From: Planctomycetota bacterium
GTDB taxonomy: Bacteria > Planctomycetota > PLA2 > JAEUHO01
NCBI GenBank assembly: GCA_965223505.1
Contig: CBDCWP010000030.1
Coordinates: 128,001-192,000, forward strand
Length of the DNA: 64,000 nt
Reading direction: 5' to 3'
Positions 24 to 56,468 of the stretch are shown piece by piece. The translations under genes and the position numbers were made by a program. The notes beneath the pieces are model-generated. The model saw nothing but the letters and a program-made list of their open reading frames with translations, ran no database searches and was not told the DNA's origin. Each line of letters starts with the position of its first letter. Within the stretch, counting starts at the first letter, position 1.

Positions 24-929
24 GTGGAGCTGGGTGGACGCGGGCTGCAACGCCGGCTGTGCGTGGTCAACCAGAAGGGCGGCGTCGGCAAGACGACCAC
101 CGCGTTCACGCTCGCGGCGGCCCTGGCGGATCTCGGTCGTCGGGTCCTGGCGGTCGACCTCGACGCCCAGGCGAACCTGACGACGTCGTTCGGATTCGAC
201 CCCGATCTACTGGACCTGACGAGCTCGGACCTGCTGGTCGAGGAGCACGTGACCCCCGAGGACGTGATCCTCGAGACCGCGATCGAAGGCGTGCACGCCA
301 TTCCGGCCGACATCAAGCTTTGCGCCGTCGAGACGCGCATCCAGGACATGATCATGCGCGAGCGGATCCTGCACACGAAGCTGCAGCCGCTGTACGACCG
401 CTATCACTACGTCATCTTCGACTGCCCGCCGAATCTGAGCCGCGTGACGATCAACGCACTTGTCGCGAGCGAAGAGGTCATCGTCCCCGTCGAGACGCAG
501 TCCTACTCGATCAAGGCCATCAGCGACCTCACCAACACCTTCGCGCTGCTCAAGGCGAAGATGGGCCACGACCTCCACGTGTGGCTCCTGCCCACGAAGG
601 TCGACCGCCGCATGCGGCTCGCCTGCGACATCCTCGACGCGCTCGACGAGGCGTTCCGCGGCCGGATCATGGATCCGATCCACGTGGACTCGAACCTGAT
701 CCGCGCGCCGCTGGTGTGCGAGCCGGTCACGCGCGCGTTCCCCACGACGCGCTCGTCGATCGAGTACTCGCGCATGGCGCGCTTCTTCACGCTGCCTGAC
801 GCCGACCGCACGCGCTGGATGAACCTGACGCTGGAGCAGCGGCGGCAGGTGCTCGACAAGGGCGCGTCCTCGGTCGTCGAATCGAGTGTCGGCTCGGAAA
901 AGGGCGACGGGAAGAAGGCGACGGCGTAG
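24..929 (+). CDS. ParA/Soj family ATPase (frame is open to the window edge, so the true start may lie upstream)
   Basis: Deviant Walker A NQKGGVGKTTT, VDLDAQANLT, IFDCPP and PVET motifs; no stop upstream of 24 in frame. Confidence 0.9.
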   Translation: MELGGRGLQRRLCVVNQKGGVGKTTTAFTLAAALADLGRRVLAVDLDAQANLTTSFGFDPDLLDLTSSDLLVEEHVTPEDVILETAIEGVHAIPADIKLCAVETRIQDMIMRERILHTKLQPLYDRYHYVIFDCPPNLSRVTINALVASEEVIVPVETQSYSIKAISDLTNTFALLKAKMGHDLHVWLLPTKVDRRMRLACDILDALDEAFRGRIMDPIHVDSNLIRAPLVCEPVTRAFPTTRSSIEYSRMARFFTLPDADRTRWMNLTLEQRRQVLDKGASSVVESSVGSEKGDGKKATA

Positions 930-1985
930 CTACGCCGGCAGCATCTTCCGCACCTCGCGCAGCACGCGCGCCACGCCGATCTTCGACAGGCACGGATGCC
1001 CTTCCACCGGGCAGGTGCGCAGGAAGCACGGGCTGCACGGCTCCGGCTCGTAGATCACATGCCGCGGCCCTGGGCCGATCGGCGCGCTCACGACCGGATC
1101 GCTCGCGCCGAACAACGCGAGCACCGGCGCCCCCACCGCCGCTGCCACATGCATCGGTCCGGTGTCGTTCGACACGACCACGTCGGCCTTCGACAACAAC
1201 CCGATCAGAACGTTCAGGTCGTCCGTGCGCCCGGCGCCGCGCAACAGGCCGGGCGCGCGTTGTGCGACGACACGCTCGATCGGACGCGTCGCATCCATGC
1301 CCACCGTCACGACGTCCGCGAGTCCGCCCTCGATCAGCGCGCGCGCAAGATCGCCGAAGTGCTCGGCCGGCCAACACTTCGCCGCGCCGTAGCTGGCCCC
1401 AGGCTCGAGCACCACCAGCGGCCGCTCGGTCTTGCGGCCGAGCGCCAGCAACAGCCGCTCGGCATCGTCCACCGCGGAACGAGGCGGCGTCAGCGACCAG
1501 TCGTCCTCGACCGTGGCGCCGAACGCCTCGGCAAGCGACGCGAAGTAGCGGCTTCGGTGCGCACTTCGAAGCGGCCGCCAGCCCGTCAAGGGATGCGTGA
1601 GAAACCGGCGCCGGCCGGGCGCGTCGTAGCCGACCCGTACCCGGATGCGCGCCAGCCAAGGGCCCAGCGCCGAGCGAAACGAACGCGGGAAGATCAACGC
1701 CGCGTCGGCCTCGAGCTCCCGCAACGCGCGGCGGCTTCGGAGCAGGTCGCGCAGGCCCTTGTCGCGCCCGGCGGGCACGACCTTCGAAACGCCCGGAAGC
1801 AGCGCCGCGAGCGGCATGAAAGGCCTCTTGACCTGGGCGACGAGCTCGACGTCGGGCCGCGCGCGATGAATCGCCGCTACCGTCGGCGCTGCCATGACGA
1901 CGTCGCCGAGCCAGTTCGGCAGCCGTACGAGGAGGCGGCGAATGTCGCCGCTCACGCTGCCGACGTGGATCTGTTCGGCTTCCAA
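930..1985 (-). CDS. waaF: Lipopolysaccharide heptosyltransferase II (GT9); start uncertain
   Basis: LVRLPNWLGDVVMA, PGASYGAAKCWP, VSNDTGPMHVAAA and C-terminal CSPCFLRTCP..H.CL motifs. Confidence 0.88.
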   Translation of the reverse strand: MEAEQIHVGSVSGDIRRLLVRLPNWLGDVVMAAPTVAAIHRARPDVELVAQVKRPFMPLAALLPGVSKVVPAGRDKGLRDLLRSRRALRELEADAALIFPRSFRSALGPWLARIRVRVGYDAPGRRRFLTHPLTGWRPLRSAHRSRYFASLAEAFGATVEDDWSLTPPRSAVDDAERLLLALGRKTERPLVVLEPGASYGAAKCWPAEHFGDLARALIEGGLADVVTVGMDATRPIERVVAQRAPGLLRGAGRTDDLNVLIGLLSKADVVVSNDTGPMHVAAAVGAPVLALFGASDPVVSAPIGPGPRHVIYEPEPCSPCFLRTCPVEGHPCLSKIGVARVLREVRKMLPA

Positions 1986-10921: not shown

Positions 10922-13900
10922 TCACTTCGGCGTGGAAGGCGGCGTGTAGTGGTAGAGGACGTAGTCGGTCAGCGCTTCCATCTGCACGTTGGCGAGAATG
11001 GCCTCGGCCTTGGCGCGCAACGCCGGGTCGCCGGAGTTGTACATGCCCTGCCACTCGGGATCGTCACGCAGGTGGAACTCGAACACCTGGTACTGCAGGT
11101 CGCACGAGCGGCCCCCGTCGCGCTTGAGGGGGTACACGTTCGGCATCTTCGTACCGTTGATCAGGTGCTGCGGGTTGTTCAACAGCATGCGCACCCAGGC
11201 GTGACGTAGCCGCTCGGCGGAGTGACCGAACGAGGGGGCGACGCCGCCGTCGTTGGGATCCGCGCCGGGCATGCCCTTCGGCAGGTGGCACTTGTTGCAG
11301 TTGATGACGTTGAAGAGCGTTCGCGCCTCTTCTACGGCGTTCGACACGACCCCGTGGACGTCGCCGACGTTCTTGCGGCACTCGAGCTTGACCGGCTGGT
11401 CGTACTCGACGCCCTCGAGACGGCTGCCCGGCTGCGGGATGACCATGCGCTGATCGCTTCCGGCCAGCCGCAGGAAGTAGTTCGCGAGCGCGATGGCCTC
11501 GTCGTCGTTCAGCCCGAACTTGGGCATGTGCACCTCGACGATGGGCCGCAGCGGGATCGGATGCTGCAGGAACCGCACGAGCCACTCCGACCGCGTTCGC
11601 CATCCCTGCGCGAAGAGGTTCGGCGGCAGCGTCGCCGGGTCCATGCCCTGCTCGACACGCTTGCCCCATAGGTAGCCCTGCTTGCCCTCGATCGTGTGGC
11701 AGTTGTTGCAACCGTAGCGTTTCACCACCTTGCGTCCGGCGATGATGTCGCGCTCGTAGTCGCCGGGCTGGTAGATCGCCCCCGGCTTGATCGGCTCTTC
11801 GACCAGCCCGAGCACGACGCCCGTCACGGCGCCACGGGTCGAGATCGCCTTCGTCTCGTTGCCGTCCGCGTCCGAGATCCAAAGATCGTCGTCCATGCGC
11901 AGGTTGAAACGCGGCATCCGCAGCTTGTCGACCCAGCGCAGCTGCTTGCCGTAGTCCCACACCCGCGGGTAGGTGATCTTCGTGCGGAAGAAGTCGTAGC
12001 GCGTGTGCGGCGCGAGCGGCACTGTCTTCTTGCGCGTCGTCTTGTTGCCGTCGGCGTCACGTTCGGCGACGTCGATGACGGCGTACTTCGGCACGCGCCC
12101 GAAGTCGAGCTGGTGGATGTCCTTGATGCCTTCCTTCGTGAGCTCGGTGCCGATGGGCATCTCGTGCTCGCGGCCGGCGACCTCGTGGCATCCGAAGCAG
12201 CCCTTCCGCGCCATCAGCCGTTCGCCGATGATCGCGAGGACCGTCTCGAGACGGTTCGGATCGCTCAGGTCGCCGATCTCGCCCTCGACCACGCCTGGCC
12301 GCTTCGACCGGCCGGATGCGTCCTTCGAGAAGAACTCCTCCCACATCTCGCGCACGATCTTTTCGTACGACTTCTTGAACGGCGACGTCGGGATCTCGTC
12401 GAACTCCGCGTCCTCGAACGAGATCAGGTAGTCGATGATGTCGGCGCGCTGTTGCTCGGCCGAGTACACGACGTTGCCGTCGAGGTCCTTGTCGTCCTCG
12501 ATGCGCATGTTGGGCATGCGCGTGTGCGCCGTGTAGTGACGCGGGTCGGCCAGCCACGCGTTGAGCCAGCGGCGGTCCTTGAGCTTGCTTCCGAGGGACG
12601 TCAGCCGCGGCCCACGGTGGATCGGCGGCTCGTGGTCGAAGCGGGCGGAGCCGTCCTCTTCGTAGACGGCGTTGCCCTCCGCGTCGTAGCCCGTGCGGAA
12701 CTCGGGCACGATGTGACAGGCGACGCAGCCCAGCCGGTTGACCAGATCACGCCCCTTGTCGGGGTCGCCCTTCGGCGGATCGATCGTGTAGAGCGGGTCG
12801 TAGCCGGGATCGGTCGGGTCGGAGCGCGAGCGCAGCCGGCCGGACGGCGCGCGTTGATTCAGCAGGTACGCGACGAGCGCGCGGATCTCGATGTCCGTCA
12901 GCGCCTCGTCGTGCGGCGTCGAGATGACGCCCAGCGCCTGGCTGAAGCGGCCGTCGCCGTAGAAGCTGTCCAGCAGGTGGGCGTCCTTGACCGGCAACGT
13001 GACGCGCTTGCCGTCCTTGTCGAGCGGGAAGTAGTTCCACTCGTGGTCCTTCAACGTGAACTCGTAGAAGGACGGCATCGGCGTGTCGACCCGGTACATG
13101 TCCGGATGCCGGATCCACTTGTCGATGAACGCGCGCGTCATCTTGTCGCGCACGTACGTCAGCGTGGGACCGACGCGCGGCGGCTGCTCGTAGCCGACCT
13201 GCTCGCCGAAGTCCTTGATCTTGTGGCAGCCGATGCAGCCGTACGACGTCATCGTGTCGTAGCCGCGCTCGAACGATGCCGCGCGCCAGCCATAGGTGGG
13301 AACGAACGCGTCGCGGTAGCGCCCGCCGTCCTCCTGCGCGCCCATGTGCTCCTTGAGCCAGAGACGTGTCTCGGCTGCGACCTTCTCGGGGTTGCCGTCC
13401 ACCGGCGGCGGCGCGGTCGGCAGCGCGTAGTCGCCGAACACCTCGAGCGGCGTGAGCTTGCGATCCTCGGGGCCCAGGTAGCGCTCGTCGTCGGGCGAAA
13501 AGAGACGCTGCGCGACGGTGCCGGCGGGATCGTCGTCGACGAAGCCGTGATCGAGGCTCTCGTCGTAATGCGGCGGATAGAACAGGCCCGCCTTGTGGCA
13601 CTTGAAGCACATGCCCTGGGTGTATTCCAGCGGCAACATCGGGTAGTCGATGTACTTCGCCTTGTACCAGCCGTGCGCCTCCTCCCAGTGCGCCTTCTGT
13701 TCGGCGGAGATCGGCGTGTGCGCGACGCGCGCGAAGTGCACGGCCCAGCCCACGCCGTGATGGCACACCGTGCAGCCGAACCGCTCGGTCGGGTGCGGGC
13801 TGCTGGTGCCGGCGATCAACGACGCGTGCGAGTGCTCGCGCATGTACGCGGGCACGTCGATCTCGTTCTCACCCGCTTCACGGCGGCGCGCGTTCAGCGC

Positions 13901-53840: not shown

Positions 53841-54656
53841 ATGACCACGTCGTATCGCGAGCTCCTGCGGGTCGAACCCGGAAGGACGCTGCGCCTGAGC
53901 GACCACGACCCCGCGGCCACGCCCGGCTGCGACGGAAAGAAGGACGCCAAGAGCCGGCTGAAGCCGCTCTTGAAGCAGCTGTACGACCTGCAGTACCTGA
54001 TGCATGCCGAAGACAAGCGGCGGATGCTGATCGTGCTGCAGGGGATGGATGCCGCCGGCAAGAGCGGCGCCGTGCGCTGTGTCATGTCCGGGCTGAACCC
54101 GCTCGGTTGCGAAACGACGTCGTTCAAGAAGCCCTCGAAGGAGGAGCTCGACCACGGATACCTTTGGCGCATCCACAAGGCGATGCCGCGGCGTGGAAAC
54201 ATCGGCGTGTTCGACCGGTCGCACTACGAGGACGTCGTCGTCGTGCGCGTCCTCGAGCTCGTGCCGGAGGCCGTCTGGCGTCCGCGCTACGAGGAGATCA
54301 ACCGCTTCGAGCAGATGCTGGCCGACAACGACACGCTGATCCTGAAGTTCTTCCTCCACATCGGCAAGGACGAGCAGAAAGACCGGTTGCAGGAGCGTCT
54401 CGACAACCCGCAGCGGCAGTGGAAGATCTCGCCCTACGACTTCGAAGCGCGCAAGCAGTGGGACGACTACATGGCCGCCTACGAAGAGGCTTTGTCGCGC
54501 TGCAGCACCGCGCACGGACCTTGGTTCGTGATTCCATCTGACAACAAGTGGTTCCGCAACCTGGCCGTCACCAGCATCGTGGTCGATACGCTCGCGGCGC
54601 AGTCGATGAAGTTTCCCGCCCCGTCCATCGACATCTCGAAGATCGTCTTGGAGTGA
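53841..54656 (+). CDS. ppk2: Polyphosphate kinase 2 family (likely class III)
   Basis: QGMDAAGKSG, FKKPS.EEL.H.YLWR, FDRSHYEDV, KFFLHI.K.EQ..R, PWFVIPSDNKW. Confidence 0.92.
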   Translation: MTTSYRELLRVEPGRTLRLSDHDPAATPGCDGKKDAKSRLKPLLKQLYDLQYLMHAEDKRRMLIVLQGMDAAGKSGAVRCVMSGLNPLGCETTSFKKPSKEELDHGYLWRIHKAMPRRGNIGVFDRSHYEDVVVVRVLELVPEAVWRPRYEEINRFEQMLADNDTLILKFFLHIGKDEQKDRLQERLDNPQRQWKISPYDFEARKQWDDYMAAYEEALSRCSTAHGPWFVIPSDNKWFRNLAVTSIVVDTLAAQSMKFPAPSIDISKIVLE

Positions 54657-54702
54657 CCGAAGGCCCGGTCGGCGGCGCCCACGGCGCCGGTAGCATGGCG
54701 GC

Positions 54703-55719
54703 GTGCTACGGCTGCTCCTGCCCGCAACGCTGATCCTCTCGACCGTGGTCTGCGCCGCCGACGAAACGACGACGGCGCCGACGATCGCCATCGGCGAGGC
54801 GGAGCTGCTGAAGGGGCCCAACGCTTTGGTGCGGTCGGTGAGGTACAGCCCCGACGGCACGCTGCTCGCGGCGGGCGAGTCCGACCGAACACTGTGGATC
54901 TTCGACAGCAAGACGCGCAAGAAGCTCGGCACGGCGACGTACCCCCCCGGCAAGGGCTGAGGCCCGTGAGTGGCGTCCGTCGCCTTCGGTCCGGAGGGCA
55001 AACAGATCGTCGCGGGCTGCACCGACGGACACCTGCGCCTTCACAGGGCGCCGAGCACCGCCGACGTGCGTGACATCGCCGCGCACAAGGCCGTCATCCA
55101 CGCGGCGGCGTATCACCCCTCCGGAACCTACGTCGCGTCGGGTTGCGACAACGAGACGATCAAGGTCTTCCGCGTGAAGGACGGCAAGGAGGTCGTCACG
55201 TTGAAGGGGCTTCACAAGGGCAAGACGTGGGCGCTCCACTTCACGGCGACGCAGCTGTACGCAGCCGGCAACGACGGCGTCGTACGCATCTGGAACACCG
55301 AGTCGTGGAAGCTCGAGGCCGCGCTCGAAGAGCAACCGGACGGCATTCTCTCGTTGGCGTTCACCAAAGACGGAACGCGCATGGCCTCCGTCGGCACCGG
55401 CAAGTCGATTCGGATATGGGATCTGGAGACACGCAAGATCGTGCGCGAGATGGAGAACCCGGACGGCCAGCTCTACGGCGCCGCGTTCGATCCCGAAGGC
55501 CGCCATCTCGCGACGTGTGGCGTCGGCAAGCGTCTGCGTGTGTGGGACACCCGAACCGGCGCGACGATTCATGTCACCCCGGAAGGCAAGAACACGATGT
55601 ACACGGTCGACTGGCACCCGGACGGGAGCTGGATCGCGACAGGCAGCTCCGGAGGGGCGCTCGCGCTGTACCCCGTCACGCCCGCCGCGAGACCGGACGA
55701 CGACGAAGCATCGAAGTAG
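54703..55719 (+). CDS. Secreted 7-bladed WD40 beta-propeller with two in-frame TGA codons (54958, 54967), candidate UxxU selenoprotein
   Basis: ORFs 54703-54960 and 54970-55719 share a frame and are joined by TGA GGC CCG TGA; together they give a signal peptide plus exactly seven WD repeats. Confidence 0.75.
54961..55018 (+). promoter_or_regulatory. Putative bacterial SECIS element
   Basis: Upper stem GCCUUC/GAGGGC (54982-87/54994-99) with apical loop GGUCCG, 18 and 27 nt after the two UGAs; lower pairing GGCCCGUGA/UCGCGGGCU (54961-69/55010-18). Confidence 0.6.
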
Positions 55720-55832: not shown

Positions 55833-56468
55833 TTGAAGCCCGACGAGTTCGTCGCCCATCTCGGCGCGTGCAAGGCGTCCGCGATCCTGCGCACGGACAT
55901 CGAAGACGCCGCCGCCCCGGCGATGGACGCCGCGATTCGCGGCGGCTTCGAGATCGTCGAGTTCACGCTGACGATCCCCGGCGTTCACGATCGAATCGCC
56001 GAGTTCGCCCGGCGTGACGATGTCGTCGTCGGCGCCGGCACGGTGCTCACCGTCGAAGACGCGCGCGCGGCGGTGAAGAGCGGCGCGCGCTTTCTCGTGT
56101 CGCCGGTCGTCAGCGACGCGGTGATCGAGGAGGCGCTGGCGCTCGACGTCGCGATCATGCCGGGCGTGCACACCCCCACCGAGATGCTCAACGCGTACGG
56201 CGCGGGCGCGCGGCTTCAGAAGCTATTCCCCGCACCGGGCCTCGGGCCGGCCTACGTCAAGGCGTGCCTGGGACCGATGCCGTTCCTCAACATCGTGCCC
56301 ACCAACGGCGCCGACGCGGACAACGCCCGTGCGTGGCTGGACGCGGGCGCGCACGCGCTGGGATTCGTGGCGCCGTTGTTCGACACGCAGGAACTGGCCG
56401 ACGGGCGCTTCGACCTCGTCGAGGCGCGCGCGCGACGCATCGTCACGGCGGTCAACGCGAGCGGTTGA
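55833..56468 (+). CDS. eda: KDPG/KHG aldolase family protein
   Basis: AILR, EFTLT, VGAGTVL, GARFLVSP, PGVHTPTE, KLFPA, PTNG; TTG start with GGAGG. Confidence 0.85.
   Translation: MKPDEFVAHLGACKASAILRTDIEDAAAPAMDAAIRGGFEIVEFTLTIPGVHDRIAEFARRDDVVVGAGTVLTVEDARAAVKSGARFLVSPVVSDAVIEEALALDVAIMPGVHTPTEMLNAYGAGARLQKLFPAPGLGPAYVKACLGPMPFLNIVPTNGADADNARAWLDAGAHALGFVAPLFDTQELADGRFDLVEARARRIVTAVNASG

Follow-up and report, generated by a model that had tools for sequence, protein, structure and literature searches.

A seven-bladed WD40 propeller of Planctomycetota with two in-frame UGA codons, very probably a selenoprotein

Introduction

Decoding of UGA as selenocysteine (Sec, U) in bacteria, as known from Escherichia coli fdhF, involves an in-frame UGA, a hairpin within the open reading frame (ORF) downstream of it (the selenocysteine insertion sequence, SECIS) with GGU(C) at its apex, and selA, selB, selC and selD. 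Some selenoproteins contain two Sec residues with two others between them; in the eukaryotic SelL, which is thioredoxin-like, such a U-x-x-U motif forms a diselenide. WD40 propellers count as binding platforms without catalytic activity, and we found none described as a selenoprotein. Here we analyze a 64,000-nucleotide stretch of DNA from a Planctomycetota bacterium (GenBank assembly GCA_965223505.1, contig CBDCWP010000030.1, positions 128,001 to 192,000 of the forward strand), hereafter the window, which belongs to contig C30 of the host assembly (5.15 Mb, 92% complete). In one family of Planctomycetota we find a WD40 gene that public records annotate wrongly, as a truncated ORF; the copy in the window (54703..55719) is a real gene and very probably encodes a two-Sec selenoprotein on a WD40 scaffold, the assignment of Sec to both sites being drawn from the comparisons described below.

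Several bacterial U-x-x-U proteins have been described. PMC2398784 reports a Prx-like 2 with this motif in GOS data, and a table in PMC13188914, a 2026 review of the prokaryotic selenoproteome, contains three U-x-x-U families, including the UxxU metal-binding family NF041115 and FmdB-family proteins. For 16 UXXU Group 4 [NiFeSe] hydrogenases, PMC13582414 suggests one downstream SECIS for both UGAs and leaves the question open. No WD40 selenoprotein came to light in a full-text literature search, in Pfam or in NCBIfam release 20, as the original prediction had supposed. The words “WD40”, “WD repeat” and “propeller” are absent from PMC13188914, from PMC12013277 (deep-Sep) and from the main text of the BSepDB paper (PMC13326102), and “WD40” and “propeller” do not occur in the searched part of the BSepDB supplement, outside which its family table may lie.

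The WD40 gene shares with the fdhF type the in-frame UGA, the in-ORF downstream hairpin with an apical GGU(C), and the presence of selA, selB, selC and selD in the genome. Unlike that type, it has two UGAs 9 nt apart on one hairpin, the stem is short (6–7 bp), and the family has no conserved lower stem that includes the UGA. With the U-x-x-U selenoproteins (SelL, Prx-like 2, NF041115, FmdB-family proteins and the UXXU hydrogenases) it has in common two Sec with two residues between them but no relation in sequence or fold, and Cys homologues, which those families have, were not found here. An NCBIfam scan of three of the proteins (P0001, P0122 and P0124) gave no NF041115 match, only WD40 and no family model.

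Results and Discussion

One reading frame across two UGA codons

The window contains two ORFs, 54703..54960 and 54970..55719, that lie in the same frame and are joined by TGA-GGC-CCG-TGA (in full, GGC AAG GGC TGA GGC CCG TGA GTG GCG TCC); read through, this stretch encodes K-G-U-G-P-U-V-A-S-V-A-F. With both TGAs taken as U, the translation is 338 residues long and meets no further stop or lesion in about 1 kb. The sequence, the ORF list and the translation agree in these respects with the original prediction. The features of the gene are the following.

54703..55719, plus strand: whole selenoprotein gene, with a GTG start, 338 codons and a TAG stop at 55717-55719; one open frame with TGA as U
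54703..54759, plus strand: predicted signal peptide of the Sec export type, about 18–19 residues, with the site between ...VVCA and AD, by eye from the sequence
54958..54960, plus strand: first UGA, residue 86, in place of the His in the WD40 “GH” dipeptide of repeat 2
54967..54969, plus strand: second UGA, residue 89, immediately preceding strand A of blade 2, with an invariant Pro before the UGA
54970..55719, plus strand: 249-codon ORF as called alone in public annotation, a truncated product rejected here
54982-54999, plus strand: SECIS-like hairpin, stem GCCUUC/GAGGGC and loop GGUCCG, or in an alternative register stem CCUUCG/CGGAGG and loop GUC
54988..54990, plus strand: GGT Gly codon at the hairpin apex, nt 22–24 when the U of the second UGA is nt 1

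We consider it likely that 54703..55719 forms one gene, whose product is an exported WD40 selenoprotein of seven blades with Sec at both UGAs. The signal peptide that had been proposed from the window alone is of a type shared by all eight full-length members, which have, by eye, a hydrophobic N-terminus ending in an A-x-A-like site, and the protein is predicted to be exported on this ground.

Conservation of the two UGAs

In a six-frame search of 41 related genomes with stops read through, two matches were full-length and had two in-frame TGAs each (35 and 32% identity), and a third (26%) had one; the remaining matches were all generic WD40 domains in frames of more than 1000 codons. A family profile was then run over 401 genomes sampled from the phylum, over the whole taxonomic family to which the window belongs (29 genomes) and over its whole order (40 genomes). 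Orthologues scoring above 300 bits are present in 7 of the 29 family genomes (5 of 16 genera), every one with an in-frame TGA. The 11 genomes of the order outside this family gave no orthologue in the profile search, and in the phylum sample the sole orthologues are the four family members included in it; the next tier, at 235 bits and below, consists of generic WD40 proteins. Together with two metagenome contigs, the seven Planctomycetota genomes make up a set of nine members in which the site is visible, with pairwise identities of 24–80% and about five deep lineages below 45%.

The second UGA is TGA in all nine members and the first in seven, with Arg in its place in both members from genus g16. 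Given that both codons recur at the same columns in seven homologues, and the second in 9/9, the pair is more than a chance occurrence; the homologues have retained TGA and not Trp or variable residues at these columns, as expected under the original prediction. Five of the genomes encode G-U-G-P-U-[VIL]-[AT]-S-x-[AS]-F-G-[PA]-[KE]-G, and both metagenome contigs are new members with U-G-P-U (seven UGPU genes in total). The two g16 genomes encode R-D-P-U-V-A-C-V-A-L-G, with the second U only and a Cys three residues on. In g16, U-x-x-C thus replaces U-x-x-U, and a dichalcogenide pair is retained.

In a single genome, two stops at a distance of 9 nt would resemble damage. The in-frame TGA recurs, however, across nine independent assemblies: it is read in the assemblies of eight other organisms and in contigs that match the window across the TGA site, from two runs of a single sample, one of which is probably the source of the window itself, and the gene has no further lesion in 1 kb. 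Organism-wide reassignment of TGA is contradicted by its use as an ordinary stop, since it terminates the adjoining polyphosphate kinase 2 (PPK2) gene and five of the nine WD40 family genes; the decoding of UGA as Sec is accordingly context-dependent. We assign a negligible probability to a pseudogene, an assembly error or such a reassignment.

Another explanation is that the locus consists of two genes, encoding an 85-residue exported peptide and a 249-residue cytoplasmic protein of six blades that starts at GTG 54970 with GAGG as the ribosome-binding site. The GAGG does lie 7 nt before this GTG, and gene callers yield exactly such an ORF in three relatives (P0280, P0281 and P0003). Seven members have GTG directly after the second TGA, but G001 has ATC there and G417 has CTG, so that a restart at 54970 is not conserved, and the GAGG is missing in g16; the six-bladed ORF, which had been offered earlier as an alternative, fails on this point. 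The frame, the TGA-GGN-CCN-TGA spacing and the upstream blade are retained at 24–59% identity, and upstream of the TGAs the protein sequence is conserved (invariant R44, G58, D61, R62 and P81). This part also evolves as a coding sequence of the same frame: between G015 and G415, the closest pair, differences at codon positions 1, 2 and 3 number 12/9/29 upstream of the TGAs, a pattern like the 31/29/103 of the downstream part. Furthermore, the structural model described below draws blade 1 and the closing strands of blade 7 from the upstream part. Two separate genes are, in our view, very improbable, and the evidence favors one gene read through both UGAs.

Beyond the nine members, short contigs (151–433 nt) in two samples (runs X3 and X4) cover only positions 54943-54999 of the window, with 5–6 differences. 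Probably, further family members in these communities share the UGA-UGA-hairpin stretch, the most conserved piece of DNA in the family.

A hairpin downstream of the second UGA

The hairpin GCCUUC-[GGUCCG]-GAGGGC, noticed from the window alone, is present, but the distances of 18 and 27 nt assigned to it are those of the loop; the stem begins 12 nt past the second UGA and 21 nt past the first. Its conservation was borne out: a hairpin with a GGU apex and a 6–7 bp stem is found at the same distance from the second UGA in 9/9 members. In the seven UGPU genes it has the form CCUUCG/CG[AG]AGG with the loop GU[CG] or, in the other register, GCCUUC/[GA]AGGGC with the loop GGU[CG]CG. In g16, where the peptide is different, a different stem occupies the same place (GCGCUC/GAGCG[CU], loop GGUC). 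The apex G-G-U-C of the WD40 gene lies at nt 22–25 of the second UGA, which we take to be the same place as that of the essential G23/U24 in fdhF.

For a count, a hairpin was defined by a stem of at least 5 bp and a loop of 3–6 nt that starts 16–22 nt downstream and has GU in its first three bases. All nine second UGAs are followed by such a hairpin, as against 99 of 2840 codon positions in the family genes (3.5%) and 3146 of 106427 genomic TGA triplets (3.0%). By this definition, the nine hairpins agree with the bacterial SECIS consensus as cited in PMC13582414 (G in the first two loop positions).

The Gly codon at the apex is GGT in 9/9 members, a codon that accounts for only 5–22% of Gly codons in the family genes; the other four invariant Gly columns use GGC throughout or mixed codons. 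In blade 2, the protein has F-G-P-K/E-G vs the usual F-S-P-D-G, and the codons concerned are exactly those that form the apex and the 3' arm. The original prediction took the GGT codon as a hint of constraint at the RNA level. The rare and invariant codon and the g16 stem, which has another sequence yet still pairs, speak for such a constraint; the stem of the UGPU genes, however, is explained by the peptide and codon bias.

The RNAalifold consensus is blurred, the g16 loop being 2 nt shorter in the codon-locked alignment, and a small RNAalifold helix around the first UGA shows no covariation. Rfam, searched at permissive thresholds over 54600-55300, returned chance-level matches only (E above 3); to our knowledge, Rfam contains no bacterial SECIS family.

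The selenocysteine machinery of the host

All four genes of the Sec pathway are present in the host genome, as they should be if the WD40 gene is a selenoprotein gene: selA, selB and selD score 507, 336 and 338 bits, respectively, and the tRNA-Sec (selC) matches RF01852 with 69 bits (cut-off 47) and is called SeC with anticodon tca by ARAGORN. Within the taxonomic family, selB is found in 28 of 29 genomes. Over the whole genome, ARAGORN reports one tRNA-SeC(tca) and one tRNA-Cys(gca).

Two other genes of the host carry a comparable codon. The host selD (L018, G000:C8:38315-39232) is a selenoprotein gene too: codon 11 of the part matched is an in-frame TGA (G-A-G-G-U-A-A-K), and behind it comes a hairpin of 7 bp, the loop of which has 8 nt and no G at its start. 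A SelW-like gene (Rdx, PF10262; L102, G000:C41:109784-110002, minus strand) encodes C-S-V-U; its SECIS, with a 5-bp stem and a GUU triloop from 22 nt after the UGA, resembles the WD40 hairpin and lies a few nt further downstream.

One hairpin and two UGAs

In the proposed mechanism, the ribosome would read both UGA 54958 and UGA 54967 as Sec. SelB with Sec-tRNA(Sec) would bind at 54982-54999, to the hairpin with its apical G-U at nt 23–24 from the second UGA, and the same hairpin would most likely serve the first UGA, 9 nt further off, through a second SelB delivery. No separate hairpin for the first UGA was found. The range used by bSECISearch is 16–37 nt, and the loop, which begins 27–28 nt past the first UGA, falls inside it. 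By analogy with the suggestion made for the UXXU hydrogenases, we infer that one SECIS serves both UGAs of the WD40 gene. The arrangement offers a compact natural test of whether a single SECIS in bacteria can act on two UGAs that lie 9 nt from each other.

Alternatively, only the second UGA would encode Sec, and the first would be read otherwise, by near-cognate read-through or as Cys by a tRNA-ReC-like tRNA, or would act as a leaky terminator that throttles synthesis. Such an arrangement would fit the hairpin, which stands at the canonical distance from the second UGA alone, as well as g16, where only the second U is present and the first column holds Arg; a tRNA-ReC has been raised as a possibility for U-x-x-U motifs in PMC13582414. 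If the first codon were freely mutable to sense, however, its retention as TGA in 7/7 UGPU members, which span at least four deep lineages below 45% identity, would be unexpected. In addition, the host has a single tRNA-Sec-like gene and a single tRNA-Cys(gca): a second tRNA-Sec-like tRNA (selC*, of the tRNA-ReC type) was not found, there being one RF01852 match above the cut-off, although in a 92% complete assembly its absence is unproven. With the loop also within the bSECISearch range of the first UGA, we regard Sec at the second site only as unlikely and retain Sec at both sites.

The propeller fold and the position of the motif

The protein is a WD40 propeller, with 143.3 bits to Pfam WD40 (PF00400; cut-off 27), and the best 25 of the 45 Pfam families matched are otherwise propeller families only. 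An AlphaFold2 model built from the nine-sequence alignment (pLDDT 88.4, pTM 0.85; pLDDT below 50 for residues 1–23) is a closed propeller with seven four-stranded blades, in agreement with the seven blades originally counted in the sequence. In the model, residues 28–36 and 43–79, all encoded upstream of the TGAs, form the closing strands of blade 7 and the whole of blade 1. In a Foldseek search against PDB, at least 500 matches had E <= 0.001, and among the matches listed all are beta-propellers and nearly all WD40; the top match is the prokaryotic WD40 domain 5yzv (E 1e-25, TM 0.78–0.94, 25% identity).

The U-G-P-U motif lies in a loop (residues 80–89; block mean pLDDT 74) between the strands 74–79 and 90–95. 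The WD40 consensus is G-H-x-x-x-V-x-S-V-A-F; in the alignment with it, Sec86 replaces the His of “GH” and Sec89 is the residue before the conserved Val. U-G-P-U looks derived from the loop G-H-x-G-P-V, which is common in WD40 proteins. In the usual WD40 topology, the D-to-A loops and the surface positions of strand A are on the top face, around the central channel. The product would cross the inner membrane by means of its signal peptide and then fold as a seven-bladed WD40 propeller, and in the model Sec89 would be two residues before the strand A surface position of blade 2, with U-x-x-U in a D-to-A loop on the usual binding face of WD40 proteins. Blade 2 has an invariant His114 (R-L-H-[DER]) in place of the usual Trp of “W-D”, and the strand A surface positions of the neighboring blades are occupied by the invariant Arg44 and His133.

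The similarity to the prokaryotic WD40 propeller 5yzv of Thermomonospora curvata is in the seven-bladed fold; unlike proteins of that type, the window protein is standalone, predicted to be exported and Sec-bearing, with His for the “W-D” Trp of blade 2 and Sec for the “G-H” His. With the thioredoxin-fold C-G-P-C oxidoreductases, only the x-G-P-x spacing is shared. Unlike in thioredoxins, the motif is in a loop before a beta-strand and not at the N-terminus of a helix, and the fold is a beta-propeller; no thioredoxin family occurs among the best 25 of the 45 Pfam families or in the NCBIfam scan of the three proteins.

The search for a Cys form and the public records

A DNA pattern for the peptide G-x-G-P-x-[VIL]-[AT]-S-x-[AS]-F-G allowed TGN, with any third base, at the two critical codons. 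It matched 14 loci in genome_contigs, four of which are WD40 orthologues, all TGA/TGA; a slightly stricter pattern matched two loci in metagenome_contigs, both of them WD40 members with TGA/TGA. No Cys or Trp form of the family was found with this pattern in either collection. The other ten loci (L080, L081, L085-L090, L092 and L093) encode a conserved unrelated membrane protein with P-I-L-A-C-Q-A-F-G-W-G-P-C-L-A-W-I-A-F-G, mostly from Acidobacteriota (Thermoanaerobaculia).

When the motif region was used for a word search of 5.8 billion proteins, three proteins from 71 candidates came back, with no Cys form among them. P0280 and P0281, the former being the public call for one orthologue, are ORFs that begin exactly after the second UGA, and the third is an ordinary WD40 protein without Cys there. 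With the whole protein, there were 297 matches, nearly all to generic WD40 proteins; only P0003 is relevant, a third truncated ORF that starts directly after the second UGA. The family is present in the databases only as these truncated ORFs of 211–249 residues, annotated as “WD40 repeat”, that of the window being the 249-residue one. In a profile search of 1.84 billion representatives, the best 150 are giant multi-WD40 proteins (941–3631 residues) whose summed scores swamp the family.

Given that no Cys homologue was found, which is unusual among selenoproteins, the classical Sec/Cys pairing test is inapplicable. A family in which searches find only Sec forms also escapes the standard discovery pipelines, which are based on homology and demand Cys homologues; the need for Cys homologues is stated as a limitation of its own method in PMC12013277.

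Observations that weigh against two Sec residues

Several observations count against the interpretation of the gene as a two-Sec selenoprotein. The evidence on decoding consists of sequence, RNA folding and a structural model. The customary, albeit not mechanistic, criterion of a Cys homologue finds no support in the searches described above. The loop begins 27–28 nt past the first UGA, outside the 16–22 nt used in our definition of the hairpin, for all seven first UGAs (0/7). When the 14 codons that follow the second UGA were resampled synonymously with the codon usage of the family, 22–46% of the resamples of UGPU genes gave an equal stem, and the folding energies are ordinary; the UGPU group has no excess stability, and we make no claim of an exceptional thermodynamic stability for the hairpin. 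Only the g16 genes stand out, and in favor of a constraint, with 3–5% of the resamples doing as well. RNAalifold identified a single clean compensatory pair, G-C to U-A in G011. One orthologue-bearing genome, G381 (88% complete), gave no selB at E <= 1e-60, and the two other U-x-x-U families that were tried (TIGR02605 and NF041115) have no Sec form in the host genome. Finally, the neighboring genes differ across genomes and give no clue to the function of the protein.

Possible function

Most simply, the protein would have a redox-active diselenide or selenol center, or a soft-metal site, on the binding face of the propeller, a proposal based on the chemistry of the motif. A center of either kind would act on the periplasmic binding partner of the propeller, whatever its nature. 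Given that both U-x-x-U and U-x-x-C keep two chalcogens around the invariant Sec89, the functional unit is expected to be a pair and not a lone nucleophile.

A bolder and rather doubtful possibility is that blade 2 has been converted from a binding scaffold into a catalytic center, which would make this the first WD40 enzyme, either a periplasmic diselenide oxidoreductase or a metal scavenger of the mercury or copper class, in which Cys is unable to replace Sec. The His-Ser/Thr-Asp-Trp network of blade 2 may have been rebuilt as Sec86, Thr-Ser, Asp108 and His114, and Sec89 may be placed on the top face between the invariant Arg44 of blade 1 and His133 of blade 3. If true, this would explain the lack of a Cys form, and one SECIS would routinely drive two Sec insertions three codons apart.

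Genomic neighborhood and other WD40 genes

In the window, the gene is preceded by PPK2 (53841-54656; PF03976, 243 bits) and followed by a KDPG/KHG aldolase gene (55833-56468; PF01081, 113 bits). This neighborhood is not conserved: neither gene adjoins the orthologues in other genomes, which are found next to genes for an Rce1-like protease (G001 and G417), a HEAT-repeat protein (g16), a transposase (G011), an M60-like peptidase (G381) or an asparagine synthase (L094). The gene of the Rce1-like (CPBP) intramembrane protease is divergent and upstream of the WD40 gene in two of seven genomes (L041 in G001, 452-1321, minus strand; L079 in G417, about 427-800, minus strand), which is too few for linkage.

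Among the other WD40 genes that were inspected, G368:C1:7544619, flagged with two TGAs, and L049 and L072-L075, which encode other exported WD40 proteins of about 330 aa, are ordinary WD40 genes with the TGAs outside the coding part. One of them, L073 (G403:C105, about 11170-12150), encodes an exported 330-residue protein from another family of the phylum with 26% overall identity, in which L-P-R-S-F-R-V-G-K-A-V-T-A-L-A-F-G-P corresponds to L-P-R-S-G-U-G-P-U-V-x-S-x-A-F-G-P of the selenoprotein family. Judging from this similarity, L073 may be a distant relative that has neither Sec nor Cys at the motif.

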